The notes beneath the pieces are model-generated. The model searched no databases, was not told the origin of the DNA, and worked only from the letters and a program-made list of their open reading frames with translations. DNA of 64,000 nt, taken from IMG/VR virus record IMGVR_UViG_3300037294_000176, positions 7,399-71,398 of that record; one strand, 5' to 3'. This stretch comes from a virus. A program made the translations under genes and the position numbers. Positions 40,332-62,454 of the stretch are shown here, in pieces (the stretch's first letter is position 1; each line of letters begins with the position of its first letter).

Positions 40332-40361
40332 AAGGCCTGAGACATGCCTTTAAACTGTCTC
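40332..40361 (+). ncRNA. H-type pseudoknot repeat copy 1
   Basis: AAGGC-CT-GAGACA-T-GCCTT-TAAAC-TGTCTC. Confidence 0.7.
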
Positions 40362-40369
40362 TTTTAATT

Positions 40370-40395
40370 TGCGGGAAACGAGGTATCTTATATGA
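40370..40395 (+). promoter_or_regulatory. motif B (TGCG-N8-GGTAYCTTATATGA) copy 1, putative early promoter
   Basis: tgcg-ggaaacga-ggtatcttatatga; second copy at 61669. Confidence 0.6.
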
Positions 40396-40415
40396 AACCT
40401 CAGAAAGGATATCCA

Positions 40416-40778
40416 ATGGTTTACAATGCTATACAGTCACCTGTAACCGCAACTCTAATTGACGCTAGAAAGCTTCTATCTAATGGTTGGACTAAGTACA
40501 CGCATGCGGTTAACCAAGAAGGTGAATCCGTGCCTGTCGACGCTGAAGATGCTTGTAGCTTTTGTATCACAGGGGCTATTAAAAGGAGCTCTCTCGCAAG
40601 TGTCGCTTTTGGCTATGATGCGGGAGTCGCTGCAAGAACCGCCGTGAGATCTGTACTCTATCAAAACCTAGGCAATCCTAGTATTGTGGAGTTTAACGAT
40701 TCAGAGTTAACCACGAAGAACGGGGTACTAAACGTTATCTCTGCTGCAATTGCGCTGAGTAAAAAGGAAACAACATGA
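40416..40778 (+). CDS. DUF6197-like hypothetical protein
   Basis: ATG at 40416 after AAAGGA; GWT...FCITGAI...FND..T pattern. Confidence 0.65.
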   Translation: MVYNAIQSPVTATLIDARKLLSNGWTKYTHAVNQEGESVPVDAEDACSFCITGAIKRSSLASVAFGYDAGVAARTAVRSVLYQNLGNPSIVEFNDSELTTKNGVLNVISAAIALSKKETT

Positions 40779-41021
40779 TTGTGTTCATCGCGTACAGTGT
40801 AATTGCTACGCTAGTGTTGAAGGCTATGAAATGAGCAGAACTAGGCTTATAAAGAGAGCTCCGTGAAGTCAAAAAATATGTTAAGCTCAGCTGAGCTAAA
40901 GCTGCAAATGGTAAGCCTGCTTCGCCAACAAGTCTGACTGCTACTACGACTACATCTTTCAAGGAAAGAAAGATTCAGACCTCGTTTCTAGAGACTTAAC
41001 CCAGTAACCACAGGAAAACAG

Positions 41022-41378
41022 ATGATCAGCCTCCTACTCGCAGCAATGCTAGACTTCACTTCAGTTACTAGTAAGTGCGCCGTACAGTTGGATGAAGTTA
41101 GGGTTGGCCCTATTGACTGCCGAGTTGCTTCTTATAAACTCGGCGACCAGCGACACGTGGTATTCAATGTAAGCGGTATCGAGTATTCGTTTACAGGTGT
41201 TGACTTCATTGGTGATACAATGAGCGTTAGTCACATCAGTATCACAACAAACGGTCGCACCTCAACAACACGTGCAGCTAGAAGATCTTTCTGCAAGCTT
41301 GAAACAGGCTTTGTCAGCTGCTCAGCAAAAGGACGTGACGTTAGTTTCTCGCTTGATACAATGGCAACACGTGAGTAA
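41022..41378 (+). CDS. hypothetical protein with hydrophobic N-terminus
   Basis: AGGA RBS; signal-peptide-like start; four Cys. Confidence 0.6.
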   Translation: MISLLLAAMLDFTSVTSKCAVQLDEVRVGPIDCRVASYKLGDQRHVVFNVSGIEYSFTGVDFIGDTMSVSHISITTNGRTSTTRAARRSFCKLETGFVSCSAKGRDVSFSLDTMATRE

Positions 41379-41646
41379 ACCTCAGATATGGGAAGTCGGT
41401 GAAGAAGTAGTTTACATCGGCCACGCTAAAGTTCCCTTTGTCTTCAGCACTGGGTCAAAACACAGGATAACGAGGACTGAGAGTCCTCTTACATGTTGTG
41501 TCCACGGGCCTTCACAGGGTGTACAAGTAGACACATTCCACGCTGTGTTGACCAATAACATGTTTCTTTGTGCCCACTCGTTCCGAAAGCCCATTAATTT
41601 CAAAGAGCTCTTGAATGTAGAAGAAAGAGCGCTTGAATCAATCTAA
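41272..41646 (+). CDS. hypothetical protein (true start probably GTG ~41371)
   Basis: ORF fills the gap between neighbours; start uncertain. Confidence 0.5.
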   Translation: MQLEDLSASLKQALSAAQQKDVTLVSRLIQWQHVSKPQIWEVGEEVVYIGHAKVPFVFSTGSKHRITRTESPLTCCVHGPSQGVQVDTFHAVLTNNMFLCAHSFRKPINFKELLNVEERALESI

Positions 41647-41655
41647 GAGGAAGAT

Positions 41656-42306
41656 ATGAATAAGTTAGCCGCAGAGATTGGAGTGTACAAGATGTCAGTC
41701 AGAGACACTGACAAGGCAATCGTTATTTTTAGATTTCCTCAAAACAAGTACGCTACGTTCTGTGAGGGTCTCCAAATACCAAAGAACAAAAACACACGTT
41801 TCAAGCTGACAGTGTACACAGAAAAGGAAATGACTTACGCGGTAGTGACGCCCTTCGAATTCGGAGCTAAGCTCCTTGAGCGGGATTCTCGTCACTATGA
41901 CATTATGTTTAGCACAGCAGATGCAGTAGACGTAGGTAAGTTCTGCAGCTTTACAAAAGCGTCTAACTTAGCGTTCAGAAATGGCGTTTTGTATTTCCAG
42001 CTAAGTTCAATGCGGAAGCCAGTCAGAAGAGCTAAGAACAGCATAAGCGTTGCACCGCTCGACAAATCTAAGCCACCAAAGAGAACAGTCTCCCTTAGAG
42101 AGCAAAGACGCACTTGCACTTTATCTTACAGTGAGGTGCTAAAAGTGTATGAGAAAGTGCCTAGCCGACTTACGAGAGAAGCCTGGGAGTTACTCTCTAC
42201 CGTGGGTCTAGGTAGCTGCCTTTTGGAAGAAAAGCAAGTAGAGTACCAAGCTGCCATCCTTGAGTTGCATTCCGCGCTCAAGCATCAAAGGATACTAGTC
42301 AAATGA
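41656..42306 (+). CDS. hypothetical protein
   Basis: GAGGA RBS, 216 aa, basic. Confidence 0.65.
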   Translation: MNKLAAEIGVYKMSVRDTDKAIVIFRFPQNKYATFCEGLQIPKNKNTRFKLTVYTEKEMTYAVVTPFEFGAKLLERDSRHYDIMFSTADAVDVGKFCSFTKASNLAFRNGVLYFQLSSMRKPVRRAKNSISVAPLDKSKPPKRTVSLREQRRTCTLSYSEVLKVYEKVPSRLTREAWELLSTVGLGSCLLEEKQVEYQAAILELHSALKHQRILVK

Positions 42307-42542
42307 ACTATCTAGTCTTTGCAATTCTGTTTCGCATCTCACTTTTTACGAAGGGGTGCCACGTGCGTGTGTTGAGCGCCAAGTTCAATTTTTACAACGA
42401 AATGTCTGACTTGCTTCTTGCCAAAGGTAGCAGGAAAGCTTTCAAGTGGTTTGATCGTAAAGCACAAAAGGCAGCTCAACGCTGCTATGAGCTTGAAGCA
42501 GACATGAATACGCTAAACATGCTGTTGGAAACACTCGTCTAA
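42303..42542 (+). CDS. hypothetical protein
   Basis: ATGA overlap with the previous gene. Confidence 0.55.
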   Translation: MNYLVFAILFRISLFTKGCHVRVLSAKFNFYNEMSDLLLAKGSRKAFKWFDRKAQKAAQRCYELEADMNTLNMLLETLV

Positions 42543-42572
42543 TTGTAGCTACCTAAACCCAAGAGGAATTAA

Positions 42573-42704
42573 ATGGTCTACGTTATCAGTGCACTGGCGC
42601 TCCTTGGCGCTTTCTCACTCATCAAGTTTGTGCTTCTTCTTGTAGTTCTCGTAGCTACTGAGATGAGAGCACAACGACACAAGAAAGCACTTTCAAATGA
42701 CTGA
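42573..42704 (+). CDS. small membrane protein (43 aa, not in ORF track)
   Basis: GAGGA RBS; MVYVISALALLGAFSLIKFVLLLVVLVA... Confidence 0.55.
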   Translation: MVYVISALALLGAFSLIKFVLLLVVLVATEMRAQRHKKALSND

Positions 42705-42936
42705 GCTAAACCTCAACAATGTCGTCAAATTCAAAATGACGGCTACCGGTATGCAAATGCTGAAAGAGCAGCACGAGCTGCTTTATGGCACTCGTAAGCC
42801 GTTTAAACAACCCTTAGCGGACGCTGACGGTTGTAATACTATGGCACTGTGGGACCTGATGAACACTTTTGGATCAAAGATGTTTATTGGTAACGCCAAC
42901 TTGCCGATCGAAACTAGACTCACCGTGGTCAAGTAA
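42697..42936 (+). CDS. hypothetical phage protein
   Basis: LNLNNVVKFKMT..G...LWDLMNTFG pattern. Confidence 0.65.
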   Translation: MTELNLNNVVKFKMTATGMQMLKEQHELLYGTRKPFKQPLADADGCNTMALWDLMNTFGSKMFIGNANLPIETRLTVVK

Positions 42937-42959
42937 GACCTCATCAAAGGAATATCCTA

Positions 42960-43250
42960 ATGCAAAAGCCAACTTTTACTAAGCCAGTCGTTCAAGAAAC
43001 CGAAGATAATCAGGTTACTATCTTGAGCAAAGCAGGTATGCTTTCCCTGACAATCATCTCTGTTGTCTTCTTCGTCATCATGTCGATGAAGGTTCCAGGG
43101 TTCTTCGGCTTTGTTAAAATCTCTGGAGACGTGATCGCAAATTATAAGATCGCATTTATTGTGCTAACGTTGGTCCTATGGATTGGCTTCAACGCCAAAA
43201 AGCAGCCAACTCGTACTAAGCCGTCCGTTCGGTATACCGAGAAGACTTAA
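42960..43250 (+). CDS. two-helix membrane protein
   Basis: AAGGA RBS; two hydrophobic segments. Confidence 0.65.
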   Translation: MQKPTFTKPVVQETEDNQVTILSKAGMLSLTIISVVFFVIMSMKVPGFFGFVKISGDVIANYKIAFIVLTLVLWIGFNAKKQPTRTKPSVRYTEKT

Positions 43251-43255
43251 CCACA

Positions 43256-43332
43256 CGACCTGAACATGTCGCTAAACTGTTTTCACATGAAGTTTAAAAC
43301 CCCTCCGACCTGAACATGTCGTTAAACTGTTC
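43256..43332 (+). ncRNA. H-type pseudoknot repeat copies 2 and 3 (43256-43282, 43306-43332)
   Basis: CGAC-CT-GAACA-T-GTCG-YTAAAC-TGTTY in tandem. Confidence 0.7.
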
Positions 43333-43388
43333 ACGGCCTTTTATTTTTCTTTGTCAAGTGATATACATCATCACTCAGTAAAAACAAA

Positions 43389-43550
43389 ATGAAAGACCCT
43401 GCTATGACGCGAAGAACGAAAGTTAGCCCTTGGTTGCAAGTTGCATTTCTATTCCTTGCATTTTGCTTAATAATCAAGAGTATCGCAGTAGCAGGTGTAT
43501 TTATAGCCGCTTACCTGGTGTTGGTATACGGTAAGAAATTTTTCAGATAG
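43389..43550 (+). CDS. small membrane protein (53 aa, not in ORF track)
   Basis: ATG...TAG in frame, hydrophobic core. Confidence 0.45.
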   Translation: MKDPAMTRRTKVSPWLQVAFLFLAFCLIIKSIAVAGVFIAAYLVLVYGKKFFR

Positions 43551-43563
43551 CAAAGGCGAACTG

Positions 43564-45816
43564 ATGAAAGCAGCGTTACGAGACTCTTTTATAGAAAGGC
43601 TGCACAAGGAGCTTGCCCCTCAAAACCCTGTAGTGTACTTGAAAAAATTTGCTGTAGAAGAATATCTTGACATTGTGATATCGATTGTCTACTTGTATAC
43701 ACGCCCTAAACGTGGTACAACAAAAACAACGATATACATGGCTGAGGTGATATCCGCAATAGGTCACGCTGTTCGAACAAAACTGCGTCAGAAGAAAGAC
43801 TCCGGTCTTGCAGCAAAAAGTGGAGCTTTCCTTCTATACACGTTTGAGCAGTTTGGGTTAATTCAAATTGTGCTCGGTCAAGGCTCTAAAGGCCACGCAG
43901 CGTACATAGTCCAAGTCTTAGATGACGATCTTATCTGCGAGCTATGGTCTAACGTTGACCCTAGCAAAGTTGAAAAATTACCCTCTACCACTCCTTACGA
44001 GCCCTGGACAAGCACCCGTCATTTTACTGGTGCGGGTCTGATCAAGACAAATAATCGAGACGTGCTAGAAGCTGTGAAACCTGAAACGCATCCTATTGTG
44101 TTTGACTGTGTAAACAAAGCGCAAACTCAAGGTTGGCAAGTCAACGAAGAACTCTATCGAATTCACTTGTGGGCTCTTCGTAATAAGACAGACGCGTTTG
44201 CAGACATCTGGGAACAACAGAACGCAGAGGCAAGAATCACTAAACTCCGAGAGGCAAAAGCAATCGGGGATATTGCAAGAAGATTCTTAGGAAAGACCTT
44301 TTACCACCTTTACTATTTTGACTTCAGAGGTCGTAAGTATCCTACAACAGCCTACCTCCACGAGCAAGGTTCAGACCTAGCAAGAGGTCTTCTTCTTCGT
44401 TCTGATAAAAAGTCAATTGGGCAACCAGGTTTCTTCTGGTTGTTAGTGTCAATTGCTTCTAACTGGGCTGGAGATGCAGGTAGAGAAGACGGGCTAAAGA
44501 CAGACAAAATCCCTTTAGCCGACAGATTTCTTTGGGCGATGGACAACGAAGAAATTCTCCTTGACTACGCTGCAAATCCTAAAGTCTCTCAAGGCTGGAT
44601 GAAAGCAGACAAGCCCTGGCAGTTTCTTGCAGCTTGTCTAGAACTCAAGAATCTACGTGAGTGGCAGTTCACCTACGGAGATAGGACAGAGAATATCTTT
44701 GAAGACTATTCTTACGAGTCTCATCTGGAAGCTTACATTGATGGTTCCAATAACGGTAGTCAACACCTGTCTGCTTTGACTAAGGACGAAATCACTGCTC
44801 CGCACGTAAACCTTGTACCTCAAGATCTTCCTGGTGACCTTTACAGGTACGTAGCCGATCACGTCTGGTTGCGCCTTGAAGAGCAAATGGCTGAGTTAGG
44901 ACAAGAAGCGATTGAAGACTGTAACAAGTTTATCGACACGTTGATAGACTTGAAACGTCAGATCATGGCTGCTCAGCCCAAAAGTGAGATACGAGAGCGA
45001 CTAGTAGAGCAGATTAAAGCGTTCAAGGACAATAACAGTGAAGTTGCTTCAATCGCAGGTCCCGTTTACTGGCTTAGAATTAGAGATCAGAAACACCGTC
45101 GCAAGATCGTGAAGCGCAATGTTATGACATTGCCGTATGGTGGCACTGCGTATGGCCTAGGGCAGCAACAGATTGACGATGCTAAGAAGCATGGCATTGA
45201 TCAACTGATGTATTTAGAACACAAGTGGGGCTCATTCCTCGGTCGAGAGATATTCGATGACTGTAGAATATCGTTAGCTAGACCAATGCGACTGCTTACT
45301 GTGTTTGAAAGTGCAGGCAAGCGTGCAGAACAGCGTGGAGAGTTCCTAAAATGGACTGTCCCTATTACTAACTTTCCTGTGGTTCAACACTATACAGAAG
45401 GTGTAGTGAAAAAGCTGTGGATTCAGTACGGGCCTCCAAAGGGCGATCGTAAAAGTACAGGCTACTACGAGAACACTTTACAGTTAGCAATCTGCTTTAT
45501 TGAAACAGTGGTCCCGTCTAAGAACAAGCAAGCCCAAGGTGCAAGCCCTAACGCTATTCACAGCCTTGATGCTGGACATTTAGCAATTGCAGTTCACAGA
45601 TCTGACTTCTCCGTTACAACCATCCATGACTCTTTTGGTTGTCTTCTTGCCGATATGCCTGAGCTCTTTATTAAAGTTCGTGAGACGTTTGTTGAGTTGT
45701 ACTCAGCTGATCCTCTCACTTCCCTAATGAAAGATATTGATGGTGATATCAGTCTTGTTGAGATTGGCAATCTTGACGTAACCCTGGTGCTCGAATCCGA
45801 GTACTGTTTCGCATAG
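43564..45816 (+). CDS. T7-like single-subunit DNA-dependent RNA polymerase
   Basis: FDFRGRKY, KPWQFLA, motif A DGSNNGSQH, motif B RKIVKRNVMTLPYG, SPNAIHSLDA, motif C IHDSFG. Confidence 0.96.
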   Translation: MKAALRDSFIERLHKELAPQNPVVYLKKFAVEEYLDIVISIVYLYTRPKRGTTKTTIYMAEVISAIGHAVRTKLRQKKDSGLAAKSGAFLLYTFEQFGLIQIVLGQGSKGHAAYIVQVLDDDLICELWSNVDPSKVEKLPSTTPYEPWTSTRHFTGAGLIKTNNRDVLEAVKPETHPIVFDCVNKAQTQGWQVNEELYRIHLWALRNKTDAFADIWEQQNAEARITKLREAKAIGDIARRFLGKTFYHLYYFDFRGRKYPTTAYLHEQGSDLARGLLLRSDKKSIGQPGFFWLLVSIASNWAGDAGREDGLKTDKIPLADRFLWAMDNEEILLDYAANPKVSQGWMKADKPWQFLAACLELKNLREWQFTYGDRTENIFEDYSYESHLEAYIDGSNNGSQHLSALTKDEITAPHVNLVPQDLPGDLYRYVADHVWLRLEEQMAELGQEAIEDCNKFIDTLIDLKRQIMAAQPKSEIRERLVEQIKAFKDNNSEVASIAGPVYWLRIRDQKHRRKIVKRNVMTLPYGGTAYGLGQQQIDDAKKHGIDQLMYLEHKWGSFLGREIFDDCRISLARPMRLLTVFESAGKRAEQRGEFLKWTVPITNFPVVQHYTEGVVKKLWIQYGPPKGDRKSTGYYENTLQLAICFIETVVPSKNKQAQGASPNAIHSLDAGHLAIAVHRSDFSVTTIHDSFGCLLADMPELFIKVRETFVELYSADPLTSLMKDIDGDISLVEIGNLDVTLVLESEYCFA

Positions 45817-45823
45817 GTGTCTA

Positions 45824-46282
45824 ATGCAAGTGTATAATACCGTACAAGAGATGAGAGTCGACAGCATCGATCCTTTGCTGTCCGAGTACATGTATGCTAT
45901 AATGACGTATTTTCCAGGGCAAGAGTTGGAAGAGTTTGACGCTGCTCTTGGAGGTCAAGTCCACATTGTAGAAACTAACGAGGACCTGCGCCAAATTGCT
46001 CTTCCACAAGAGAGCACTCTGCCACTAGAGAACCGACCAAGTCACGGCTGGTCAACTCCGCTAGAGAGTGCAACAGGTACAGATCAGGCTGCTTATCTCT
46101 ACGGCAGCCAGTGGATGATTATCTGGACAGCTTGGAATGACTCAGGAGGTCCAACTTTTTTCATCCCTAAGGCTGTTTTTGATACTGTTCCTAACCTTGA
46201 CGCAATTGTCAAACTAAGCAGTTCCTCGAACAATGACACGTTTAGTCGCTTTCCGGGAGATGAAAATGTTAGTGAAGCGTAG
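45824..46282 (+). CDS. hypothetical protein
   Basis: 152 aa, acidic; WNDSGG motif. Confidence 0.6.
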   Translation: MQVYNTVQEMRVDSIDPLLSEYMYAIMTYFPGQELEEFDAALGGQVHIVETNEDLRQIALPQESTLPLENRPSHGWSTPLESATGTDQAAYLYGSQWMIIWTAWNDSGGPTFFIPKAVFDTVPNLDAIVKLSSSSNNDTFSRFPGDENVSEA

Positions 46283-46457
46283 CTCAATCCTTACTGGCGT
46301 TGAGCGAGAAATAGAGCTTGACATAACAGAAGAAAGACTAACGGCTTACTGTAAAGGTCAGCTGGGCCTAATTCAAACAGCATTTCCACATCTAACTGAC
46401 AATGAACGAGAGTTCATAATGACAGGTATCACACAAGACGAATGGGAGAAAATGTGA
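46266..46457 (+). CDS. small hypothetical phage protein
   Basis: ATG at 46266; LIQxAFPHLxxxEREFIMTGITxxEW pattern. Confidence 0.65.
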   Translation: MLVKRSSILTGVEREIELDITEERLTAYCKGQLGLIQTAFPHLTDNEREFIMTGITQDEWEKM

Positions 46458-46828
46458 GCAACTCTAACAACCAATACACGTCAGCTACAAATAAAGGGTC
46501 TATAAAGGAGTGTATGGCAGAAGATAGAATGAAAAATACTTTTATTTTGCTAGGTTCTGACGTTTACATTCCTTACTCAGAAGTTGTATTAGAGGCTCTC
46601 ACAAGCAGCTATATCTTAGAGTCAGCTTATAACGTTGATTACGACTCTCTGCTTATCATTACAAGTAGAAGACCTTCTGTCAAGGTAATGAACAAAGACG
46701 TGATTACCCCGAAGTACGCAACTCCAGAAGCAGTTGCAAAACACAATAAAGCGCAGCTCAATCGAATGGAAGCAGACCTTGAGCAGTTGCAAAAAGATAT
46801 CGAACTTGCGCGTGAAGCAGTAGCGTAG
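46442..46828 (+). CDS. hypothetical protein
   Basis: ORF with C-terminal coiled coil; start uncertain. Confidence 0.5.
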   Translation: MGENVSNSNNQYTSATNKGSIKECMAEDRMKNTFILLGSDVYIPYSEVVLEALTSSYILESAYNVDYDSLLIITSRRPSVKVMNKDVITPKYATPEAVAKHNKAQLNRMEADLEQLQKDIELAREAVA

Positions 46829-46841
46829 TTCTAGTTCAACA

Positions 46842-46859: not shown

Positions 46860-46901
46860 TCTTGTTGAGGTTAACACAAGTTCTAACCAACAGGTAATTA
46901 A

Positions 46902-54986: not shown

Positions 54987-56765
54987 ATGATCAACCGGAA
55001 ACACATCAAGGTCGATTATTCTCGTGATGCCTTGTTTGACGAAATGGGACTGCGTCGTCTCAAGGATTCTTACATGGCACCTAACGAGAAGTCGCCTCAA
55101 GATCGTTTCTCTTACGTTGCTAGAGCGTTGTCCACAGACGCTGCTATGGCACAACGTATCTACGACTATATTAGTCAACACTGGCTAAGCTTAGCCACAC
55201 CAATACTTTCATACGGAGCCTCCAAGAAAGGGCTTCCTATTTCATGCTACCTTGCTTTTGTTGATGACACGGCAGACGCTCTTGTCAACACGCAAGCCGA
55301 AGCCAACTGGTTGTCAATGCTTGGTGGTGGCGTTGGTCTGGGGATTGGTATTCGCTCTGAAGACCACAGGTCTGTAGGTGTGATGCCTCACCTGAAGACG
55401 TACGAGGCTAACTCACTGGCCTACCGTCAAGGAAAAACACGTAGAGGCTCGTTTGCGGCCTACCTAAGCATCAGTCACCCTAACGTCAAGCAGTTCATTG
55501 ATATGAGAAAGCCTACAGGTGATGCTAATATGCGTTGTCTGGAGCTCCATCATGGTGTCAATATCACAGACGATTTCATGCAACTAATTAAGCGTTGTAT
55601 GCAAGATACTAACGCTGACGACAGCTGGGACTTGATTGATCCTCACTCAGGGAAGGTCAAAGAAACAGTCTCCGCAAGAGAACTTTGGACTTCAATCCTC
55701 GAAACCCGCATGCGAACTGGTGAACCATACATTCATTACATTGATGCGAGCAACCGAGGTCTTCCTGACTTTCAAAAGAAGCTCGGTCTTAAAGTCCAAC
55801 AGTCAAACATTTGTACTGAAATTACTCTAGCAACTGATGCAGACCGTACTGCAGTATGCTGTCTCGCCTCAGGTAATCTTGAGTACTGGGATAAGTGGAA
55901 AGACAATTATCAGTTTCACAGAGACATTGCTGAGCTTCTTGATAATGTTCTCACCTTATTTATCAAGAAAGCACCTAAGGAAATTTCGAGAGCTGCTTTC
56001 TCAGCCACGCGTGAGAGAGCTATCGGTTTTGGTGCACTTGGTTGGCATGCCTTGCTACAGCAGAAATCTATCGCTTGGGAGTCAGCCACAGCTGTTTCCC
56101 TGAACAAGCGTATCTTCAAGCGTATCAGAGAGTTTTTTGATCGTGCCAGCTACGAACTTGCTATTGAGCGTGGTCCCTGTCCAGACGCAGCTGACAGTGG
56201 TGTTATGGAACGGTTTAGTCACAAGCTGGCGATTGCTCCAAACGCATCCACTTCAATCATCATGGGTAACACGTCAGCCTCCACTGAGGCCTTCCGTGCC
56301 AACGCGTATCGCCAAGACACTTTATCAGGCTTGTTCCTCAACAAGAATAAGTACCTTGATGCTATACTTAAGCTTCGTTGCAGTGATGCAGAGTACGTCA
56401 AGGCCTGGCAGGTCATTGTAACTTCTTCCGGCTCATGCCAGAGCCTAGACTGCCTGACCAATCATGAAAAAGAAGTGTTCAAAACCGCCTCTGAGATTGA
56501 TCAGCTATGGACAATCCAACACGCTGCAGATAGACAAGAGTTTATCGATCAATCCCAATCTGTTAACCTGTTCTTCAAAGCCGACGTCTCTGTTGGCTAC
56601 CTTCACCATGTGCACTATAAGGCATGGGAACAGAATCTCAAGACCCTATACTACTGCCGGTCTGACAAGCTATACTCTGGAGAGTCTGAGCATTCCGTCA
56701 AGACAGAAGTAAATCATACCTTTTCAGCGGTAGTCGGTGATTCCGATTGCCTAGCATGTGAGTAA
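54987..56765 (+). CDS. nrdA: ribonucleotide reductase class Ia alpha subunit (no ATP-cone)
   Basis: ATPIL, ISCY, SNICTEI, AIAPNASTS, IDQSQSVN, KTLYYCR, C-terminal CLACE. Confidence 0.95.
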   Translation: MINRKHIKVDYSRDALFDEMGLRRLKDSYMAPNEKSPQDRFSYVARALSTDAAMAQRIYDYISQHWLSLATPILSYGASKKGLPISCYLAFVDDTADALVNTQAEANWLSMLGGGVGLGIGIRSEDHRSVGVMPHLKTYEANSLAYRQGKTRRGSFAAYLSISHPNVKQFIDMRKPTGDANMRCLELHHGVNITDDFMQLIKRCMQDTNADDSWDLIDPHSGKVKETVSARELWTSILETRMRTGEPYIHYIDASNRGLPDFQKKLGLKVQQSNICTEITLATDADRTAVCCLASGNLEYWDKWKDNYQFHRDIAELLDNVLTLFIKKAPKEISRAAFSATRERAIGFGALGWHALLQQKSIAWESATAVSLNKRIFKRIREFFDRASYELAIERGPCPDAADSGVMERFSHKLAIAPNASTSIIMGNTSASTEAFRANAYRQDTLSGLFLNKNKYLDAILKLRCSDAEYVKAWQVIVTSSGSCQSLDCLTNHEKEVFKTASEIDQLWTIQHAADRQEFIDQSQSVNLFFKADVSVGYLHHVHYKAWEQNLKTLYYCRSDKLYSGESEHSVKTEVNHTFSAVVGDSDCLACE

Positions 56766-56768
56766 CAA

Positions 56769-57785
56769 ATGTCTGACATCTTTAAAGCACGTGATGTATA
56801 CAAGCCACTAGTCTACCCTTGGGCAGATGAACTGTGGCGCAAGCATGAGCAAATGCACTGGCTTGCTCGTGAAGTTCCTTTACATGAAGACGTCCGTGAT
56901 TGGAACAATAAGCTGACCCAAGAAGACCGTAACTTTTTAACTGACGTGTTCATTCTGTTTACGCAGAGTGATGTTGATGTAGCTGGTGGCTATATTGATG
57001 ACTACTTCCCTCACTTTAAGCAGCCTGAGCTTCGCATGATGCTTCTTGGTTTTGCTGCTCGTGAAGCAGTCCATATCGATGCTTATTCTTTCCTTGTCGA
57101 AACAGTGGGTATGGAAGACAGCTTCTACAAAAAGTTTCTCGACATCGGAGTCATGAAAGCTAAGCATGACTTCTTTAATACCTTTGTTTCTTCCAGTAAG
57201 TCTGGCAAGAAAAAGAAGAAAGAACAAGTACTGGCACAAATTGCTGGTATTAGCGCTTTTACCGAAGGTATGTTCCTGTTTTCCTCTTTCGTAATGTTGC
57301 TTGCTTACCCTCGTAAGAACATGATGAAAGGCATGGGTCAAATCGTCTCCTGGTCAGTTCTCGACGAGCAGATGCACGTGAAAGGCCTAACTAAAATTTT
57401 CAATACTATTGTTGAAGAAAATTCTAGCTTCCTTACTAGAGACGTCATTGACGACATCAGAGCAACTGGGGAGATGATGGCTGAGCTTGAGTTTGACTTT
57501 ATTGACTACGTGTATCGTAAGAAGCAAGACATGCATGGACTTGACAAAGATCAACTTAAAGAGTACATCAAGTACACTGTTGATCTCCGTCTCAAGGATC
57601 TCAATGTCCCTACTCTATTTGGTGTCAACCTCAACCCTCTGCCATGGGTGGATGAAATGATTTCCAGTCAGAACCACGAAAACTTCTTTGAGGCTCGTGC
57701 AACTAGCTACGCCAAGGGTGCTACAACAGGTTCTTGGGGTGACGTATGGGGCCACTATAAAGACCCAGGAAAAGAAGCAGCCTAA
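56769..57785 (+). CDS. nrdB: ribonucleotide reductase beta subunit
   Basis: FTQSD, REAVHIDAY, TEGMFLFSSF, DEQMH, NFFE. Confidence 0.95.
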   Translation: MSDIFKARDVYKPLVYPWADELWRKHEQMHWLAREVPLHEDVRDWNNKLTQEDRNFLTDVFILFTQSDVDVAGGYIDDYFPHFKQPELRMMLLGFAAREAVHIDAYSFLVETVGMEDSFYKKFLDIGVMKAKHDFFNTFVSSSKSGKKKKKEQVLAQIAGISAFTEGMFLFSSFVMLLAYPRKNMMKGMGQIVSWSVLDEQMHVKGLTKIFNTIVEENSSFLTRDVIDDIRATGEMMAELEFDFIDYVYRKKQDMHGLDKDQLKEYIKYTVDLRLKDLNVPTLFGVNLNPLPWVDEMISSQNHENFFEARATSYAKGATTGSWGDVWGHYKDPGKEAA

Positions 57786-58222
57786 TGGATTTACGTAGAC
57801 AGAACTACTTTATGAGAGTGGCTGTCGAAACCGCTGGCCTATCCTATGCTACCAAGCTTAGGGTAGGCGCAGTGGCGGTCATTGACAGACGAATTGTTTG
57901 TACAGGTTACAACGGAACACCAGCAGGGGAGTCTAATCAGTGCGAAGACTTCTTTGATGGCAAGCTCAATACACGAGAAAACGTAGAGCACGCTGAACGT
58001 AACCTCATCTACTACGCCACTAGAAAGGGTATTGCACTAGAGGGTGCTTCTTTATTTATAACACATTCGCCCTGTATTGAATGTGCAAGAGCAATAGCTA
58101 ACGTAGGCTTCATTGAAGTCTATTACCAGACCCTTTTCAATCATGAAGAGGGTCTTAAATTTTTAAATGACAGAGTCCGAGTCATTCAAGTACACCCTAC
58201 AAATTACAGGAACCACAAATGA
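57785..58222 (+). CDS. dCMP deaminase
   Basis: TGYNG, HAE, THSPCIEC. Confidence 0.92.
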   Translation: MDLRRQNYFMRVAVETAGLSYATKLRVGAVAVIDRRIVCTGYNGTPAGESNQCEDFFDGKLNTRENVEHAERNLIYYATRKGIALEGASLFITHSPCIECARAIANVGFIEVYYQTLFNHEEGLKFLNDRVRVIQVHPTNYRNHK

Positions 58223-58479
58223 CAATGATTGAAGTAACCTCAAAAGACCCCCATCACTTCTTTGCTACAAGCGTCGCTGGCTACAAAACTAGCGCAAGTC
58301 TCGATGAAGTGATCAGTACAATGAAGTACGACAACATTCCGTTCTCTGTTTGGCTTGTACCTCTTCCACTAGAGTCGTGCTACAGTATTGAAAATTTCGT
58401 ACCTCAAGTAGATGAGTCAATTAGTCTAACCACGTACGAGTATGATATGGTTGCCGACACGTGGTTTGATCATGTTTAA
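58219..58479 (+). CDS. hypothetical protein
   Basis: ATGA coupling; 86 aa. Confidence 0.55.
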   Translation: MTMIEVTSKDPHHFFATSVAGYKTSASLDEVISTMKYDNIPFSVWLVPLPLESCYSIENFVPQVDESISLTTYEYDMVADTWFDHV

Positions 58480-59371
58480 ACCGCAGCTAGCACCAAACGA
58501 AGACCCTCTTAAACGACCTACTTTCTTCGAAGAGCTGAAATTTCCTCTGCTATGCTCTCCAAAGTTGGATGGTATTCGCGGTTACACTACAGGCGCGGGT
58601 ATTTTCTCTAGAACAGGTAAGCTGTTACCTTCGCTCCAAGTGCAGGATGAATTTTCAGATCTTATGCATTTTGATGGAGAAGTGATCGTAGGTAGCGCTA
58701 CAGACCACGATGTGTACAACCGCACCCAAAGTCACGTTATGTCAATAGCAAAAGAAGGAGACATTTCTTACCACGTTTTTGACTACATTCACCCTGATTG
58801 GTTAAACCTTTCGTTCTACCGTAGGCTAGAGGAGGCAGAGAAGCGCGTAAAGCTGAGTCTTCAGTGCAACCTCAAGTACGTACCTCATACAGAGGTTAAC
58901 AACTTGCTCGAACTCTTGGTGTATGAAACTACGTGTCTAGAAGAGGGTTACGAGGGTATCATGATGCGTGACCCAGCAGGTCGTTATAAAAGAGGTCGAT
59001 GCACTTGGAACGAGGGTATTATTTACAAGCTCAAGCGGTTCACAGATGCAGAAGCATCTATTGTAGGGTTTCGTGAGGAGATGACCAACACTAACGAGAA
59101 ACTGCAGGATGAGTTTGGGTATGCTAAGCGTTCTTCAAGTAAAGCTGGACTGATTCCTGCTAATACGCTAGGTAAGTTTGTAGTAGACTTTAACGGTCAA
59201 GAGCTAGACGTTGGCTGTGGTAGTTTTACCCACGAACAAAGGAAACTCATCTGGGACTGTTCTGATGACTTTCTGGGCGACACTCTCAAGTTCCGGTTCT
59301 TTGGTCACGGTGTCAAAGACTTACCCAGGTTCTCACGAGCTCTAGGTTTTAGAACGGAAGATGACATATGA
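58472..59371 (+). CDS. ATP-dependent DNA ligase
   Basis: SPKLDGIR, FSRTGK, FDGE, VFD, EGYEGIMMR, YKLKRF; ATG at 58472. Confidence 0.93.
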   Translation: MFKPQLAPNEDPLKRPTFFEELKFPLLCSPKLDGIRGYTTGAGIFSRTGKLLPSLQVQDEFSDLMHFDGEVIVGSATDHDVYNRTQSHVMSIAKEGDISYHVFDYIHPDWLNLSFYRRLEEAEKRVKLSLQCNLKYVPHTEVNNLLELLVYETTCLEEGYEGIMMRDPAGRYKRGRCTWNEGIIYKLKRFTDAEASIVGFREEMTNTNEKLQDEFGYAKRSSSKAGLIPANTLGKFVVDFNGQELDVGCGSFTHEQRKLIWDCSDDFLGDTLKFRFFGHGVKDLPRFSRALGFRTEDDI

Positions 59372-59522
59372 CAACAATTCACGCTGCAAGTACTACAACC
59401 AACGTTAATTCAGCAGCTTGCCTCTTAGCGGCTCTCTTATGACGTGTTACGCAAATGTAAATTTCACACGCCTACATTGGTCGTGTTTTTAAGTACACTC
59501 AGAAGCATAGGAAAGAACTCAA

Positions 59523-60539
59523 ATGGGTATGAAACGAAGCACAATTAAGAAGCTTTTGACCAAAAAGCTTTTTTCTTGGCAAGAGTCGATTGAAGATCAA
59601 GCAGTAAAGACAGCTGTAAAAGACAATACAATAGTTAGTGGAGGTTGTATTGCCTCTATGTTGATGGGGGACCCCATTAATGACTATGATCTTTACTTTC
59701 GCACGAGAGAAACAGCCGAGCTCGTGGCAAACTACTATATTACGCAATTCAATAAAACTAAAGGACAACTCGAACACACTGCATCGAGGAGTATCAATCC
59801 AACAGTTGAGTCGTGTAACGTTGTTAATCTTCGGGGTGAAGAGGAGAACCGAATCGTCATCATGATGAAGTCCTCAGGTGTTGCTTCAGAAACACAAGAG
59901 GCTTACGCTTATTTCGAAAACCAGGAAAACCAAAAGCCGGAAGACACTTTTATGGCCAGTCTTAAGGCAGACTACGGGTATGAAAGTCTACAAAGCGACG
60001 CGATTGGTGTGGCTGCTGAGCTTGCCAAAGAGTTCAAGGGCCAACCGGGAGTCAAAACACCTCATAAAACACCTTACCGTCCAATCTTTTTGACAGATAA
60101 CGCAATTACCTTGTCAGATGGTGTTCAGTTGGTTATTCGCTTTTACGGAACCCCATCCGAGATTCACGATAACTATGATTTTGCCCATGCAATGTGCTAC
60201 TACGACTGGTCTACAGACACGCTTGTTACACCGGAAGAGTCGCTAATCTGCATGCTGTCAAAGGATCTCGTGTACAAGGGATCGCTATATCCTTTGTGTT
60301 CCTTGATGCGTACCCGTAAGTTTATTGCGCGTGGCTGGAGAATCTCAGCAGGTCAAATGCTGAAGATAGCGAGCCAAGTACAAAAAATCGACTTTAGCGA
60401 TCCAAGTGTCTTGAGAGAGCAGTTAATGGGCGTTGATGCAGCGTACATGTATGAGCTTATCAACGCAATCAAGAGTCACCAGGGTAAAATTGATGACACC
60501 TACTTAGCTAAGCTCATTGACGAGGTGTTTGATCAGTAA
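59523..60539 (+). CDS. Pol-beta-superfamily nucleotidyltransferase
   Basis: VSGGCIAS...INDYDLYF (GG-x-DxD); NYDF..AM; R.RKFI.RGW. Confidence 0.75.
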   Translation: MGMKRSTIKKLLTKKLFSWQESIEDQAVKTAVKDNTIVSGGCIASMLMGDPINDYDLYFRTRETAELVANYYITQFNKTKGQLEHTASRSINPTVESCNVVNLRGEEENRIVIMMKSSGVASETQEAYAYFENQENQKPEDTFMASLKADYGYESLQSDAIGVAAELAKEFKGQPGVKTPHKTPYRPIFLTDNAITLSDGVQLVIRFYGTPSEIHDNYDFAHAMCYYDWSTDTLVTPEESLICMLSKDLVYKGSLYPLCSLMRTRKFIARGWRISAGQMLKIASQVQKIDFSDPSVLREQLMGVDAAYMYELINAIKSHQGKIDDTYLAKLIDEVFDQ

Positions 60540-60793
60540 TGCCTAGTGGTCGCGTACCAATAAGACCTAAAGTTGGTTACAGCTATCAACTTGACTGCAG
60601 CAAGATTGTAACGGTAATCCGACAAACCGCCAATGAAGATTTCCCTATTCTGTCAAAAGATGAAGAAGGAAACTTTTACAAACACACGTTAAAGGGTCGA
60701 GCTACGTTAGAGTTTGGCAACCACCCGAATCACATGCGTAAAGAGCTGCGCAAAGAGTACAAGGAAGTATTTAATGGACTCAACGGAAGATAA
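60539..60793 (+). CDS. hypothetical protein
   Basis: TAATG coupling. Confidence 0.5.
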   Translation: MPSGRVPIRPKVGYSYQLDCSKIVTVIRQTANEDFPILSKDEEGNFYKHTLKGRATLEFGNHPNHMRKELRKEYKEVFNGLNGR

Positions 60794-61052
60794 GATGACG
60801 CTGCGAGAGGTAGAAATGCAGCGGTTGACAAATCTAGAATTTATCGAGAAGCTGATGAGCTTCTCACCCTACGGGGCTATGGTTCAAGTGTTTGTAATTG
60901 AAGCACTCAGATCCTACTCAGCAGAAGTAGTGGCAAAGCCACCTCCTAAAGATGACCCTGGAGCATTCTTCAGCATGGAGGCTTGGTATGGAATTGCAAA
61001 AGACGTAAAGCGCCAAATTGATGAAAAGTATGCGCCGGGCAACTCCGAGTGA
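60774..61052 (+). CDS. hypothetical protein
   Basis: ATG at 60774; TN.EFI..LM.FS..GA.VQ.FVIEAL pattern. Confidence 0.6.
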   Translation: MDSTEDKMTLREVEMQRLTNLEFIEKLMSFSPYGAMVQVFVIEALRSYSAEVVAKPPPKDDPGAFFSMEAWYGIAKDVKRQIDEKYAPGNSE

Positions 61053-61473
61053 CCTTTCTGCGTTGATAGAGCTCGGAGAAGAGTTTTACAACGCTTCAGG
61101 ATACGAGTCTTATCTTCCTTTAGACAAAGCACACACGGCGAAGTCTCTCAGGAAGATGATCCACTCACCTCAAGCAAGCGTTCTTGTGTATGAAACGTCT
61201 TTAGGCATTCTTGGTAGTGTTGGTCTTGCTACTATGCCTAGTTACTTCAGCAAAAACATAATCGCAATTGAGCAGTTTATTTGGGTCCAACCACAGGCTC
61301 GCGGTAAGATGTTAGAGTTACTTATCCCCGCTTTAGAAGACGAAGCTAGACGCCTCAACTGTACCGTACTCACGCTTATTGCTTTAGAAAACTTAAGACC
61401 CAAAGCCGTAGGTAGACTTTACGAGAACAAAGGCTACGTCCGAATGGAAAATGCGTACATAAAAAGGTTATAA
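61030..61473 (+). CDS. GNAT-family acetyltransferase
   Basis: MRRATPSDL, EQFIWVQPQARG, RLYENKGY. Confidence 0.8.
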   Translation: MRRATPSDLSALIELGEEFYNASGYESYLPLDKAHTAKSLRKMIHSPQASVLVYETSLGILGSVGLATMPSYFSKNIIAIEQFIWVQPQARGKMLELLIPALEDEARRLNCTVLTLIALENLRPKAVGRLYENKGYVRMENAYIKRL

Positions 61474-61632
61474 CTTTTGACGCAAAAGCGAAGAGGCCTT
61501 AAAAACGCGCGAGGGCCACCGTCTCGTTCAGCCATGATCCACCCCTCTGCCGCTCCGAGTTGCCTGTCAGGCGTCGAGTCTGCTGGGTAGCTTTGGGCAG
61601 TGGCTTGAGTCGGTCCTGGCTGGTGCAACCTG

Positions 61633-61650
61633 AACCCGTTAACTTAACCC
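61633..61650 (+). promoter_or_regulatory. motif A copy 4
   Basis: aacccgttaacttaaccc. Confidence 0.7.
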
Positions 61651-61668
61651 TTATCTTGATTCGATATC

Positions 61669-61694
61669 TGCGCAGATCAGGGTACCTTATATGA
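61669..61694 (+). promoter_or_regulatory. motif B copy 2
   Basis: tgcg-cagatcag-ggtaccttatatga. Confidence 0.6.
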
Positions 61695-61741
61695 TAAGAA
61701 ATATGTCTTGTCATTATCAAGCCAATCAAGGAATAAAGACT

Positions 61742-62317
61742 ATGACTGAATTTAAACAAATGTACGTCACAAGCGACGGCCAAATGTTCCCAACGATGGC
61801 TGAAGTGAACGATTACCTGCGTACTCCAAAGGTTCGTGAAGCGCTTCTGGCCATGACCGACAACAATGTCCAACTTTCTGAATGGCTGATTGAGCACCGT
61901 GAAGTTGTTGAGTCTGCCTTCGACGTAGGTACGATCACGCGTGTCACGAAGTCGGACAAAGCCAAGCTGGTAAAGGCTTTAGGCTTCCTCGTTGAAGTTG
62001 CTGCCTCTGATAAGCGCCTGGCGTTCCTCGCTGACAATCACGAGGCTATTGCAGAGTCGTTCCGCTGGCCCAAGGTTAGCCGTATGACGCCTGAAGAAAA
62101 GGCAACTGCTGCTTTCAACACGCTTCAAGGCGTTGACGGCAACGAAGAACTGGCTAACTGGGTGCTGTCGCAGAAGACCGCTATCCTGGAAGCCTACGAG
62201 GCTGGTAAAGTCAAGCAGACCCTCAACGTCAAAGCTGCTGAAGGTCTTGCCGCTTACCGTGCCAAGAAGGAAGCCGCAAAGGCTGCCGCCACAGCTGCTG
62301 AAGCTCCTGCAGAGTAA
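61742..62317 (+). CDS. highly expressed hypothetical protein
   Basis: ATG at 61742 after AAGGA; capsid-like codon bias; Ala/Lys-rich C-terminal tail. Confidence 0.75.
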   Translation: MTEFKQMYVTSDGQMFPTMAEVNDYLRTPKVREALLAMTDNNVQLSEWLIEHREVVESAFDVGTITRVTKSDKAKLVKALGFLVEVAASDKRLAFLADNHEAIAESFRWPKVSRMTPEEKATAAFNTLQGVDGNEELANWVLSQKTAILEAYEAGKVKQTLNVKAAEGLAAYRAKKEAAKAAATAAEAPAE

Positions 62318-62359
62318 ACAGCAGTTCGTCCAATACATGATGACATAAAAAGCAGTGTA

Positions 62360-62454
62360 GGTATCACTTGTGATGCCGCCTCGTAAGAGGTATGACCTAG
62401 GCAAGTCGTTAAAGGAGCCTGTTCGTCCGACCTGAGCATGTCACAAAACTGCTC
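62360..62454 (+). ncRNA. structured intergenic RNA: two hairpins plus pseudoknot copies 4 (62393-62420) and 5 (62429-62454)
   Basis: GGTATCAC/GTGATGCC; GCCTC-GTAA-GAGGT; GAC-CT-AGGC..GTC..GCCT; GAC-CT-GAGCA-T-GTC-ACAAAAC-TGCTC. Confidence 0.65.

Follow-up and report, generated by a model that had tools for sequence, protein, structure and literature searches.

A small H-type RNA pseudoknot family behind phage stop codons, with a putative role at message ends

Coremin motifs (xrRNA-C) and xrRNA-WCC occur in plant, fungal and picorna-like RNA viruses (Dilweg, Olsthoorn et al.; PMC10520033, PMC10321173), and coremin-type motifs are reported there to stall Xrn1 and scanning ribosomes and to promote frameshifting. 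Small H-type knots with an A-rich linker are also found in bacterial and phage messages, as in the preQ1-I riboswitch and the T4 gene 32 leader. In the eukaryotic nuclear RNAs MALAT1 and MEN-beta, the 3' end is formed by a triple helix followed by a tRNA-like element that is cut by RNase P.

The pseudoknot family and its copies

The element found in the window (the whole 64,000-nucleotide stretch analysed, from a viral genome of 71,398 bp) has a consensus of about 27 nt arranged as an H-type pseudoknot, in which a first stem (S1, 3–5 bp) is followed by CU, a second stem (S2, 5–6 bp ending in CA/UG), one base, the 3' strand of S1 (S1'), NNAAAC and the 3' strand of S2 (S2'), with nearly every base sitting in stems or short loops. 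The conserved positions are CU, CA/UG, AAAC and an A at +1 (61%), whereas the first S2 pair is variable (A-U; U-U in Staphylococcus phages). All copies are intergenic and lie on the coding strand (Table 1).

Table 1. Positions of the knot copies and neighbouring features in the window
Feature	Position	Strand	Sequence or gene	Remarks
Endolysin gene stop codon	40325–40327	+	TGA	gene 39692–40327, Phage_lysozyme
Knot copy 1	40332–40361	+	AAGGC-CT-GAGACA-T-GCCTT-TAAAC-TGTCTC	30.9 bits, E 1.9e-6; S1 5 bp (AAGGC/GCCTT), S2 6 bp (GAGACA/TGTCTC)
Knot copy 2	43256–43282	+	CGAC-CT-GAACA-T-GTCG-CTAAAC-TGTTT	38.3 bits; S1 CGAC/GTCG, S2 GAACA/TGTTT with one G-U; first of tandem pair; behind stop TAA 43248–43250
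Knot copy 3	43306–43332	+	CGAC-CT-GAACA-T-GTCG-TTAAAC-TGTTC	41.8 bits; second of tandem pair; 232 nt upstream of RNA polymerase gene start (43564)
T7-type single-subunit RNA polymerase gene	43564–45816	+		query used to fetch relatives
Weak knot copy 4	62394–62420	+	GAC-CT-AGGC-AA-GTC-GTTAAAGGA-GCCT	only 3 + 4 pairs; long linker
Knot copy 5	62429–62454	+	GAC-CT-GAGCA-T-GTC-ACAAAAC-TGCTC	41.0 bits; 3' region behind the 61691–62317 gene
Canonical terminator-like hairpin	62461–62491	+	CCCATTGTC...GATAGTGGG + TTTTAAAT	9 bp; 6 nt after copy 5

The original prediction had counted five copies, four of which (copies 1, 2, 3 and 5) are strong, whereas copy 4 is weak and remodelled. A covariance-model search of the whole genome returned exactly four copies at 30.9–41.9 bits, with the next best match at 8.5 bits, although these four matches hold by construction because the strong copies had been included in the model seed. 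Copy 4 was not detected by the model anywhere in the genome at E ≤ 10; it has GACCT, CA, GTCGTTAAA and TGTTC in common with copy 3, on either side of a 6-nt insertion, and thus looks like a remodelled duplicate, probably one that diverged from the neighbouring copy. The generic pattern of a knot with 4 + 5 pairs is not rare in this genome (three unrelated matches on the plus strand and one on the minus strand), and a loose 11-mer with two mismatches gave 40 matches against 34 ± 6 in shuffles, which is chance level. The family is considered real because of the shared sequence and the covariation in homologues elsewhere, and not because of the generic pattern alone.

Covariation was scored in pattern scans of viral contigs that kept the partner bases free. 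Bases outside the search patterns covaried almost perfectly: among the unique matches listed, the GTC form was preceded by GA in 98 of 100 and the GAC form by GT in 111 of 112, and pairable S2 partners were present in 94 of 100, 108 of 112 and 90 of 105 of the matches listed, with covarying S2 variants such as GAG/CUC, GAA/UUC, GGG/CCC, GGA/UCC and others. One alignment behind the covariation figures had been pre-filtered for pairing, and its figures therefore lean towards structure. Swapped stems are present in relatives of this phage, and 53 matches in bacterial genomes had both stems complete in 35 cases and neither in 16 (chance, by a rough estimate, about 17). In addition, none of 308 loci carried copies on both strands, and the orientation was strictly co-directional with the genes. 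Since the covariation is unbiased and the G-U variants work only on the coding strand, the element is an RNA-level H-type pseudoknot under structural selection, as first proposed. We infer that the NNAAAC linker is placed in the S1 minor groove and that the conserved C of the CU loop contacts the conserved C-G pair of S2.

The carriers are hundreds of unrelated phages, with at least 116–120 loci in each of three pattern scans of viral contigs. Copies were also detected in prophages or bacterial genomes of Bacillota, Bacteroidota, CPR, Chloroflexota, Mollicutes and Proteobacteria, together with a near-copy in a Pasteurella phage. One query variant, run against 5,426 E. coli genomes, revealed no full-length copy. 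Phages of many kinds carry the motif, including temperate Staphylococcus and Lactobacillus siphophages, which are not known to encode an RNA polymerase, and the suggested tie to the phage's own RNA polymerase finds no support. At the gathering score, Rfam 15 returned only a tRNA over the whole window and no family for the knots. With an E-value threshold, the 131 and 111 nt around the copies gave nothing better than E 0.29, off the motif, and on the motif itself the strongest resemblance was to SBWMV1_UPD-PKb (14.7 bits, E 4.8). The family is thus absent from Rfam 15, and a literature search found no description of it.

Placement within phage operons

Context was counted over 214–385 copies. 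The predicted placement 4 and 5 nt behind the stop codons of the endolysin gene and of the gene ending at 43250 was read directly for copies 1 and 2, and it generalises: over 214 copies, the spacer between stop codon and knot shows a sharp onset at 5 nt (40 copies), falling between 5 and 9 nt in 86 and below 5 nt in seven. Between the last late gene and its downstream neighbour, which starts at 40392, copy 1 is the sole structure, and it is directly followed by TTTTAATTT, whereas copy 3 is followed by ACGGCC and then by a T-rich tract. The gene ahead of copies 4 and 5 had been called highly expressed, for which no support was found.

Downstream of the knots, at least 5 T in 8 nt were found in 25% of 287 copies, against 3–4.5% at control positions, and positions +1 to +9 contain only 8–10% G. 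The following 30 nt have a mean folding energy of −2.4 kcal/mol, compared with −3.5 and −3.6 at control positions, and reach −5 or lower in 13% versus 26–27% of controls (n = 355). A Shine-Dalgarno motif with a start codon lies 10–34 nt after the knot in 112 of 353 copies, and in 153 of them no such combination was found within 150 nt. The downstream genes are diverse; in five Bacillota-phage lineages (Staphylococcus, Lactobacillus, Geobacillus, Anoxybacillus and B. megaterium phages), the knot lies directly upstream of the scaffold and major capsid genes.

A tRNA on the same strand starts 2–14 nt after the knot in 17 of 385 copies, whereas in none of the 385 does a tRNA end within 200 nt upstream. 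Correspondingly, knots precede 17 of 158 first or solitary tRNAs versus none of 79 tRNAs that follow another tRNA (p = 0.001). As knots next to tRNAs occur at message-to-tRNA junctions only, the knot goes with the message and not with the tRNA. Under strict criteria, four of 258 copies end a convergent unit and none starts a divergent one; a canonical terminator-like hairpin stands 3' of the knot in two of the four convergent cases (sequences read by eye), as it does at copy 5. The slot 220–310 nt upstream of the RNA polymerase gene holds a hairpin with a T-run in 18 of 24 relatives, whereas in this phage it holds two knots and no such hairpin, and in the nearest relative one knot. A U-tract does not go with a greater distance between knot and next gene.

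A candidate barrier and its alternatives

To judge from sequence and context, the knot probably works as a barrier, delimiting messages at their ends and shielding them. The explanation that we put first, although tentatively, is a cap, a rigid triplex knot that closes off the upstream message at its 3' end. The element, a self-contained RNA of some 27 nt, folds into a compact pseudoknot of the luteovirus or coremin type and, set right behind the stop codon at the nearest site that a terminating ribosome need not melt, would act as a mechanical roadblock at cistron boundaries. The 3' end could result from termination at the following U-tract or, alternatively, from an RNase P cut at the following tRNA or from cleavage in the unstructured, G-poor stretch after the knot, which would then halt 3'-5' exonucleases. 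Among the functions originally listed, 3'-end stabilisation or exonuclease blocking seems to fit the context data best. Several observations run against a 3' cap: the conserved tertiary features match those by which frameshift knots and coremin withstand 5'-3' motors, an S2 of 5–6 bp would be a modest obstacle from the 3' side, 75% of the copies have no U-tract, and the absence from E. coli is left unexplained. The position before scaffold and major capsid genes also fits protection of the downstream message. At sites with a terminator-like hairpin downstream, the last structure is this hairpin and not the knot.

The main rival, though less likely to be correct than not by a wide measure, is a block to 5'-3' decay, in which the knot would be a coremin-like phage counterpart of exoribonuclease-resistant RNAs that stops RNase J or other 5'-3' motors. 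It would protect the downstream cistron, as the capsid-gene positions and the nearby start codons suggest, or leave a stable downstream fragment. The consensus and the coremin motif GUCCGAAGACGUUAAACUAC share a core of a short stem followed by G-UUAAAC-U (PMC10520033), and Watson-Crick pairing between loop and spacer is shared with the xrRNA-WCC variant (PMC10321173). RNase J (TIGR00649 over its cut-off) was called in 29 of 35 knot-bearing bacterial genomes versus 7 of 17 with only chance matches (Fisher p = 0.004), an association confounded by phylogeny because Bacillota and CPR dominate; of the controls, E. coli is lost once the threshold is set at E ≤ 1e-50. The lack of full-length copies in E. 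coli also speaks for such a block. A Segatella genome and two others without RNase J, as well as the Pasteurella near-copy, are exceptions to the association. Against such a block, the knot lacks the second hairpin on which the Xrn1 resistance of coremin depends, the downstream 30 nt being less structured than controls, the loop departs from YGAD/YGNNAD, and the knots are missing from tRNA-to-tRNA junctions and end rather than start units. A broader version, to which we give limited credence, is that tailed phages have their own xrRNA class, a 27-nt knot with a coremin core that would stop RNase J and/or 3' exonucleases and segment operon messages. If so, the core shared with eukaryotic RNA-virus coremin xrRNAs would reflect convergence or very old descent, and long operon messages would be cut into pieces whose stabilities are set separately, a kind of "pseudoknot punctuation" comparable to the tRNA punctuation of mitochondria.

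An unlikely alternative is a translation insulator that stops post-termination or read-through ribosomes and keeps the G-poor stretch behind it unpaired, so that ribosomes can land there and initiate anew, which would uncouple neighbouring cistrons. The hard 5-nt minimum behind the stop codon, the unstructured downstream sequence and the nearby starts are consistent with it, as are arrays in which each small gene is preceded by a knot of its own (eight copies in 7 kb of contig L291 and four in 1.4 kb of L435) and the block to scanning ribosomes reported for coremin (PMC10520033). However, many copies have no Shine-Dalgarno-plus-start within 150 nt, and there is no gene for the knot to serve where it precedes a tRNA or a terminator or closes a convergent unit.

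Very unlikely is that the knot forms the structural half of an intrinsic terminator for the host or phage RNA polymerase, with S2 closing before the U-tract. The roughly six-fold enrichment of U-tracts directly after S2, the sequence behind copy 1 and the canonical hairpins of relatives in the same slot point in this direction, yet most copies lack the tract, which in the window follows S2 directly only at copy 1, 6 nt separate copy 3 from its T-run, and copy 5 has a separate terminator. Furthermore, termination needs no strong loop conservation, and a site just before capsid genes is hard to square with the high demand for their products.

That the knot binds a specific partner or acts as a catalyst, whether as an aptamer, a protein site, a tRNA-acceptor mimic that RNase P or Z would cut or a very small ribozyme, is highly improbable. 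Such a role would account for the strong conservation of CU, CA/UG, AAAC and the +1 A, and the U before G at the S2 start followed by C and A may resemble tRNA positions −1/+1/72/73. The diverse downstream genes and the lack of a pocket-sized loop weigh against it, as do the variable first S2 pair, the lack of any Rfam riboswitch or ribozyme match around the copies and a hammerhead core that is not enriched nearby. The ligand-binding RNA first suggested finds no support, given the diverse downstream genes and the use of nearly every base in stems or short loops. A DNA-level site (promoter, protein operator or recombination site), for which repeats preceding each small gene in some contigs look promoter-like, is hardly credible given that both stems covary with pairing kept, that G-U pairs would be A-C on the other strand, that orientation follows the genes and that the motif occurs in phages of many phyla sharing no DNA-binding regulator.

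If the barrier function holds, these knots would be among the most widespread cis-acting RNA structures of phages, would explain different message lifetimes for neighbouring genes in compact operons, and would extend the idea of xrRNAs and triplex caps from eukaryotic viruses to bacteria. They could then offer a portable 27-nt stabiliser or insulator for synthetic operons, and a knot model in annotation pipelines could delimit cistrons and transcripts in the genomes of uncultured phages.

Comparison with known systems

The candidate 3' cap has partial counterparts. With the MALAT1 and MEN-beta ends, the message-knot-tRNA order would share a compact triplex directly 5' of an RNase P site, whose cut would leave a protected 3' end, whereas the U-rich clamp on an A-rich tail and the lack of sequence relation set those RNAs apart. 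Intrinsic terminators or 3' stabiliser hairpins of phage operons occupy the same slot in relatives and share the U-tract with a quarter of the knots; in contrast, the knot has conserved loops and is not a GC-rich hairpin, and the tract is mostly missing. The preQ1-I and gene 32 knots have other conserved bases, and the phage knots have no consistent downstream gene; preQ1-I (RF00522) gave no Rfam match at E ≤ 10 around the copies, and no queuosine gene family appeared among the matches listed for 70 downstream proteins.

The phage knot also resembles the luteoviral frameshift knots such as that of BWYV (discussed in PMC10321173), very small triplex-type knots with an S1 of 4–5 bp, a first loop of 1–2 nt that begins with C, a single junction base and a linker of 6–7 nt rich in A. 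The phage S2 is longer, and a stop codon, not a slippery heptamer, is met upstream. A −1 frameshift stimulator was considered and rejected, as stop codons and no X XXY YYZ site lie upstream of copies 1 and 2; no ORFs of at least 45 aa cross the knot gaps in the window.

A further likeness is to coremin and xrRNA-WCC (PMC10520033, PMC10321173). Coremin is written there as GUC-CGAA-GAC-GUUAAACUAC, and the phage consensus GAC...GUC-N-UUAAAC-UG has the short stem and the G-UUAAAC-U of the published 20-mer; the antiparallel Watson-Crick pairing of hp1 loop bases with the 3' part of the spacer corresponds to the covarying S2. Linker adenosines proposed for the S1 minor groove and an essential C as first loop base complete the likeness. 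The phage loop has 8 nt (CUGRRCAU, with Y at position 1 and G at position 3) and is not YGAD/YGNNAD, its S2 has 5–6 bp compared with 0–3 bp (3 bp in xrRNA-WCC), and the second hairpin (hp2) is absent directly downstream, as judged from folding energies (n = 355). Both are compact knots, that of coremin resisting 5'-3' motors. The phage knot is carried by DNA phages that infect bacteria and stands within operons, behind stop codons.

Covariation and occurrence of the pseudoknot family

From the window alone, the case for a family of compact H-type pseudoknots (two stems, S1 and S2, with a CU loop and an A-rich linker, about 27 nt) was thin; a generic knot of four plus five pairs with these loop lengths was found in the window genome three times on the + strand, at unrelated places, and once on the − strand, and a loose 11-mer search of the window gave matches at chance level. 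The original prediction had counted five copies and proposed a covariance model as a check. This model recovered four copies in the whole genome (30.9–41.9 bits), with no other match above 8.5 bits, and thus left copy 4 undetected. The four copies were part of the model's seed, so that their scores are given by construction and the informative part is the gap to the next match.

Over viral contigs, a pattern derived from copies 2, 3, and 5 (CCTGARCATGTCNNWAAACTG; scan 1) retrieved at least 118 viral loci. Among the 100 unique matches listed, the two bases upstream of the pattern were GA in 98, completing the GAC/GUC stem, and in 94 the three downstream bases were complementary to the R position left free and to the bases next to it. 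When the 3' strand of S1 was switched to GAC (scan 2), at least 116 loci were obtained, with GT as the upstream bases in 111 and S2 pairable in 108 of the 112 matches listed. Finally, leaving the second and third positions of S2 free (scan 3) yielded at least 120 loci; 90 of the 105 matches listed showed pairable combinations in S2, including 45 with GGG in the 5' strand and CCC or CCT as the 3' partner, and 38 with GGA and TCC or TCT. Because the partner bases were absent from the patterns, these pairing tests are unbiased. In bacterial genomes, the scan 1 pattern gave 53 matches, with both stems complete in 35 and neither in 16, the latter being a built-in control; by our rough estimate, about 17 matches were expected by chance. 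In an alignment of 132 copies, 96.4% of the cells paired (27–42% in slid controls) and double changes were present at six of the nine pairs, a figure that leans towards structure because the rows had been pre-selected for pairing at four of these pairs. The CTT variants form G-U pairs on the coding strand but would be A-C if the other strand were read, and none of the 308 loci carried copies on both strands; therefore, the structure is that of RNA on the coding strand. The predicted RNA structure was thus right, as shown by the covarying partner bases, left free in the scans, and by the strand-specific G-U variants.

In the resulting consensus, S1 (3–5 bp) is separated by the CU loop from S2 (5–6 bp, the final two pairs being C-G and A-U), and a junction of one base leads to the 3' strand of S1. 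The linker (5–7 nt) ends in AAAC, and the 3' strand of S2 begins with UG. The position +1 after the knot is A in 61%; this A may pair with U in the CU loop, extending S2 to six pairs. The approximately 9 nt past the knot contain only 8–10% G. Knots with a longer linker (TTATAAAGG or GTTAAAGGA), in which S2 has 3–4 bp made with the first loop bases, may form a subtype; they were noticed in Rhizobium phage RHph_TM30 and at copy 4 of the window. When the long-linker type of copy 4 was sought by pattern (GACCT-N6-GTC-N-TTAAAGG), the scan returned 39 loci, at or below chance for a 15-base pattern by our rough estimate, with few convincing knots.

Rfam 15, which had also been proposed as a check, contained no matching family at gathering score, nor at E ≤ 10 on short stretches around the copies. 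No description of the phage motif was found in the literature searched, although a catalogue listing more than ten thousand candidate RNAs of viruses (PMC10690425) may contain it in its supplements; no data on this site were found in the RinA paper (PMC3152322). We conclude that this is a real family, of very wide occurrence and absent from Rfam 15. In 200 genomes of one bacterial class, a strict pattern matched in the centre genome only, so the motif is too rare per genome for such sampling.

Placement of the copies and neighbouring genes

All the genes of the viral record are on the + strand, and no DNA relatives of the window, close or distant, were found among GenBank phages. By direct reading, the sequences at the five predicted sites were as described, copies 1 and 2 starting 4 and 5 nt after a stop codon and copies 2 and 3 forming a tandem pair, 50 nt apart with 23 nt between them. 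Copy 5 lies 111 nt 3' of the stop of the preceding gene, with a canonical terminator-like hairpin with TTTTAAAT 6 nt past it. Copy 4 can still form 3+4 pairs and retains its neighbours' GACCT, CA, GTCGTTAAA, and TGTTC around a 6-nt insertion, and we read it as a remodelled duplicate of the neighbouring copy. A sigma-70-like promoter match in the 3' part of the endolysin gene precedes copy 1 by about 190 nt and, if used, would place this copy also in a leader; promoter-like matches in this region were in the number expected from shuffles. Synteny behind the endolysin, 96-aa, and 208-aa genes found no usable relatives among the RNA polymerase loci.

Features of the window (bases 7399–71398 of the 71,398-bp viral record) and of other loci (L numbers)
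Feature	Sequence	Position	Strand	Remark
Giant ORF	window	20305–30129		3274 aa; structural region of T7-type-polymerase phage
Giant ORF	window	31313–38575		2420 aa; structural region of T7-type-polymerase phage
Lysozyme-type endolysin	window	39692–40327	+	
Sigma-70-like promoter match	window	40110–40138		TTGACG, 17 nt, TACAAT (10/12)
Knot copy 1	window	40332–40361	+	
Knot copy 2	window	43256–43282	+	
Knot copy 3	window	43306–43332	+	
T7-type single-subunit RNA polymerase	window	43564–45816	+	
Gene preceding copy 5	window	61691–62317	+	
Knot copy 4	window	62394–62420	+	weak; possible longer-linker subtype
Knot copy 5	window	62429–62454	+	
Family-A DNA polymerase	window		+	
tRNA	window			one
Repeated cassette	L291	7400–14520	+	also in L314
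Tandem knots	L155	about 2568–2625	−	
Possible longer-linker knot	L491	700–735		Rhizobium phage RHph_TM30

Across the family, the motif lies between genes and points in the same direction as its neighbours. Its predicted placement behind stop codons was recovered as a sharp onset, at 5 nt, of the spacer between the stop and the outermost S1 pair: among 214 copies, 86 had spacers of 5–9 nt (40 of them exactly 5 nt) and seven had shorter ones. The helicase site of the ribosome lies about 11 nt from the first P-site base, so 5 nt would be the nearest position at which a structure stays unmelted while the ribosome is on the stop codon. The upstream genes are diverse; in 23 of 86 contexts, the gene immediately preceding the knot encodes a phage HSP20 (small heat-shock protein; loci L079, L080, L084, L085, L096, L097, L100, and others). 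Downstream, a Shine-Dalgarno and a start codon, the latter 10–34 nt past the knot, were present in 112 of 353 copies, and the 30 nt 3' of the knot were less structured than control stretches. The idea of a riboswitch was rejected, as no common family was found among 70 downstream proteins.

Two or more copies were present on 51 of 308 locus strands, and some contigs held arrays, with eight copies spread over 7 kb in L291 and four over 1.4 kb in L435; tandem duplication of the element recurs, as in copies 2 and 3 of the window. Knots about 2 nt and 31 nt apart were seen in L155, and in L101 and L130. In L291, and likewise in L314, a repeated intergenic cassette was noticed: behind each knot come the same leader (G-poor, about 22 nt, resembling ACTACTCAACTCAACTTG) and then a small ORF that lacks an obvious Shine-Dalgarno motif.

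Among named phages, a 38-nt query matched 169 GenBank records; among the matches listed, some fell within annotated coding sequences with only half of the query covered, and we read these as due to chance. In six lineages (Staphylococcus phages B166 and 80, Lactobacillus phage KC5a, thermophilic phage D6E, Anoxybacillus phage A403, and B. megaterium phage Page), the knot separates a portal, minor-head, or protease gene from the gene that follows. Page excepted, an annotated scaffold gene and then the capsid gene follow, A403 having an unannotated gene after the knot and then the coat gene; in Page, the gene before the knot encodes a head-to-tail joining protein and both downstream genes are annotated as hypothetical. 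A position ahead of the scaffold and capsid genes is compatible with protection of the message downstream as well as with a unit boundary. In addition, the knot was located behind the ribonucleotide reductase gene in roseophage SIO1 and 5–6 nt ahead of a tRNA-like gene in Nostoc phage NMeng1.

A possible role at the 3' end of the upstream message

At least five T were found in the eight bases past S2 in 25% of 287 copies, versus 3–4.5% at control positions. Among 385 copies, a same-strand tRNA started 2–14 nt past the knot in 17, and no tRNA ended within 200 nt upstream; these knots stood ahead of 17 of 158 first or solitary tRNAs versus none of the 79 located behind another tRNA (p = 0.001). 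Under strict criteria (258 copies), four copies ended a convergent unit and none started a divergent one. Moreover, in 18 of 24 relatives the 400-nt stretch preceding the RNA polymerase start contains a hairpin of at least 6 bp with a T-run, mostly 220–270 nt from that start; by the same rule none was found in this slot of the window, which holds two knots at 232–308 nt, and L026, the relative nearest to it (77% polymerase identity), carries a single knot in the slot. Taken together, the U-tracts, tRNAs, unit ends, and polymerase slot link the knot to where the upstream message ends and equate it with hairpins that form or protect 3' ends. That the knot caps the 3' end of this message is the best explanation, held tentatively and at somewhat less than even confidence. 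Where a tRNA follows, a cut by RNase P would leave the knot a few bases from the new 3' end. U-tract copies, predicted to be farther from the next gene, were not so (p = 0.5). Hammerhead-type cutting sites past the knot were discarded, as CTGATGA showed no enrichment (one downstream versus eight upstream in 385 copies).

Relatives fetched via the RNA polymerase showed swapped stems (TGTC/GACA; CGTC/GACG with GGCCA/TGGCC; ACTC/GAGT with AGGCA/TGCCT). The motif was present in only five of 70 relative loci, and the knot is therefore gained and lost readily. Separately, L005, L025, L010, L045, and others carry a strong hairpin, TTTCTTT, and a pure T-run (about 10 to more than 30 bases) 100–250 nt upstream of the polymerase gene, ahead of the small membrane ORF before that gene; its role could be that of a terminator, a slippage tract, or an origin.

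Comparison with exoribonuclease-resistant RNAs

The main rival to 3'-end protection is that the knot would be a coremin-like barrier to 5'-3' motors. Coremin-type elements are described as stalling the 5'-3' exonuclease Xrn1, blocking scanning ribosomes, and promoting frameshifting (PMC10520033, PMC10321173), and were modelled by their authors as BWYV-like triplex knots (PMC10321173). The core formed by a short stem and then G-UUAAAC-U is common to the knot and to GUCCGAAGACGUUAAACUAC, the coremin motif known from RNA viruses, those of plants among them, as is loop-spacer Watson–Crick pairing to the knot and the xrRNA-WCC variant, so the conserved knot features would be the ones that resist such motors. 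In a test of one prediction of this rival, RNase J, called as TIGR00649 over its cut-off, was found in 29 of 35 knot-bearing bacterial genomes (one more at 391 of 400 bits) versus seven of 17 genomes with chance pattern matches only (Fisher p = 0.004), a comparison confounded by phylogeny, and no full copy of the knot occurred in 5,426 complete E. coli genomes. However, the association has exceptions: Segatella and two other genomes, as well as a Pasteurella phage with a near-copy. Unusually for their class, three MAGs labelled "uncultured Gammaproteobacteria" (about 1 Mb each; G001–G003, the genomes of L194, L196, and L234) contain a full RNase J alongside the knot; the labels may be wrong. 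The other rivals considered take the knot for a translation insulator, a terminator in its own right, an RNA with a binding or catalytic role, or a site acting at the DNA level.

Despite the shared stem and G-UUAAAC-U, the phage knot has no counterpart of the second hairpin required by coremin, and its loop departs from the coremin consensus; therefore, it falls outside coremin, but may act in a similar way. As regards the preferred 3'-end protection, the same logic applies to the MALAT1 triple helix, a structure just 5' of an RNase P site, where the cut leaves a protected 3' end; this parallels the order of message, knot, and tRNA. In conclusion, the knots are a new family, built like the compact triplex knots already known.
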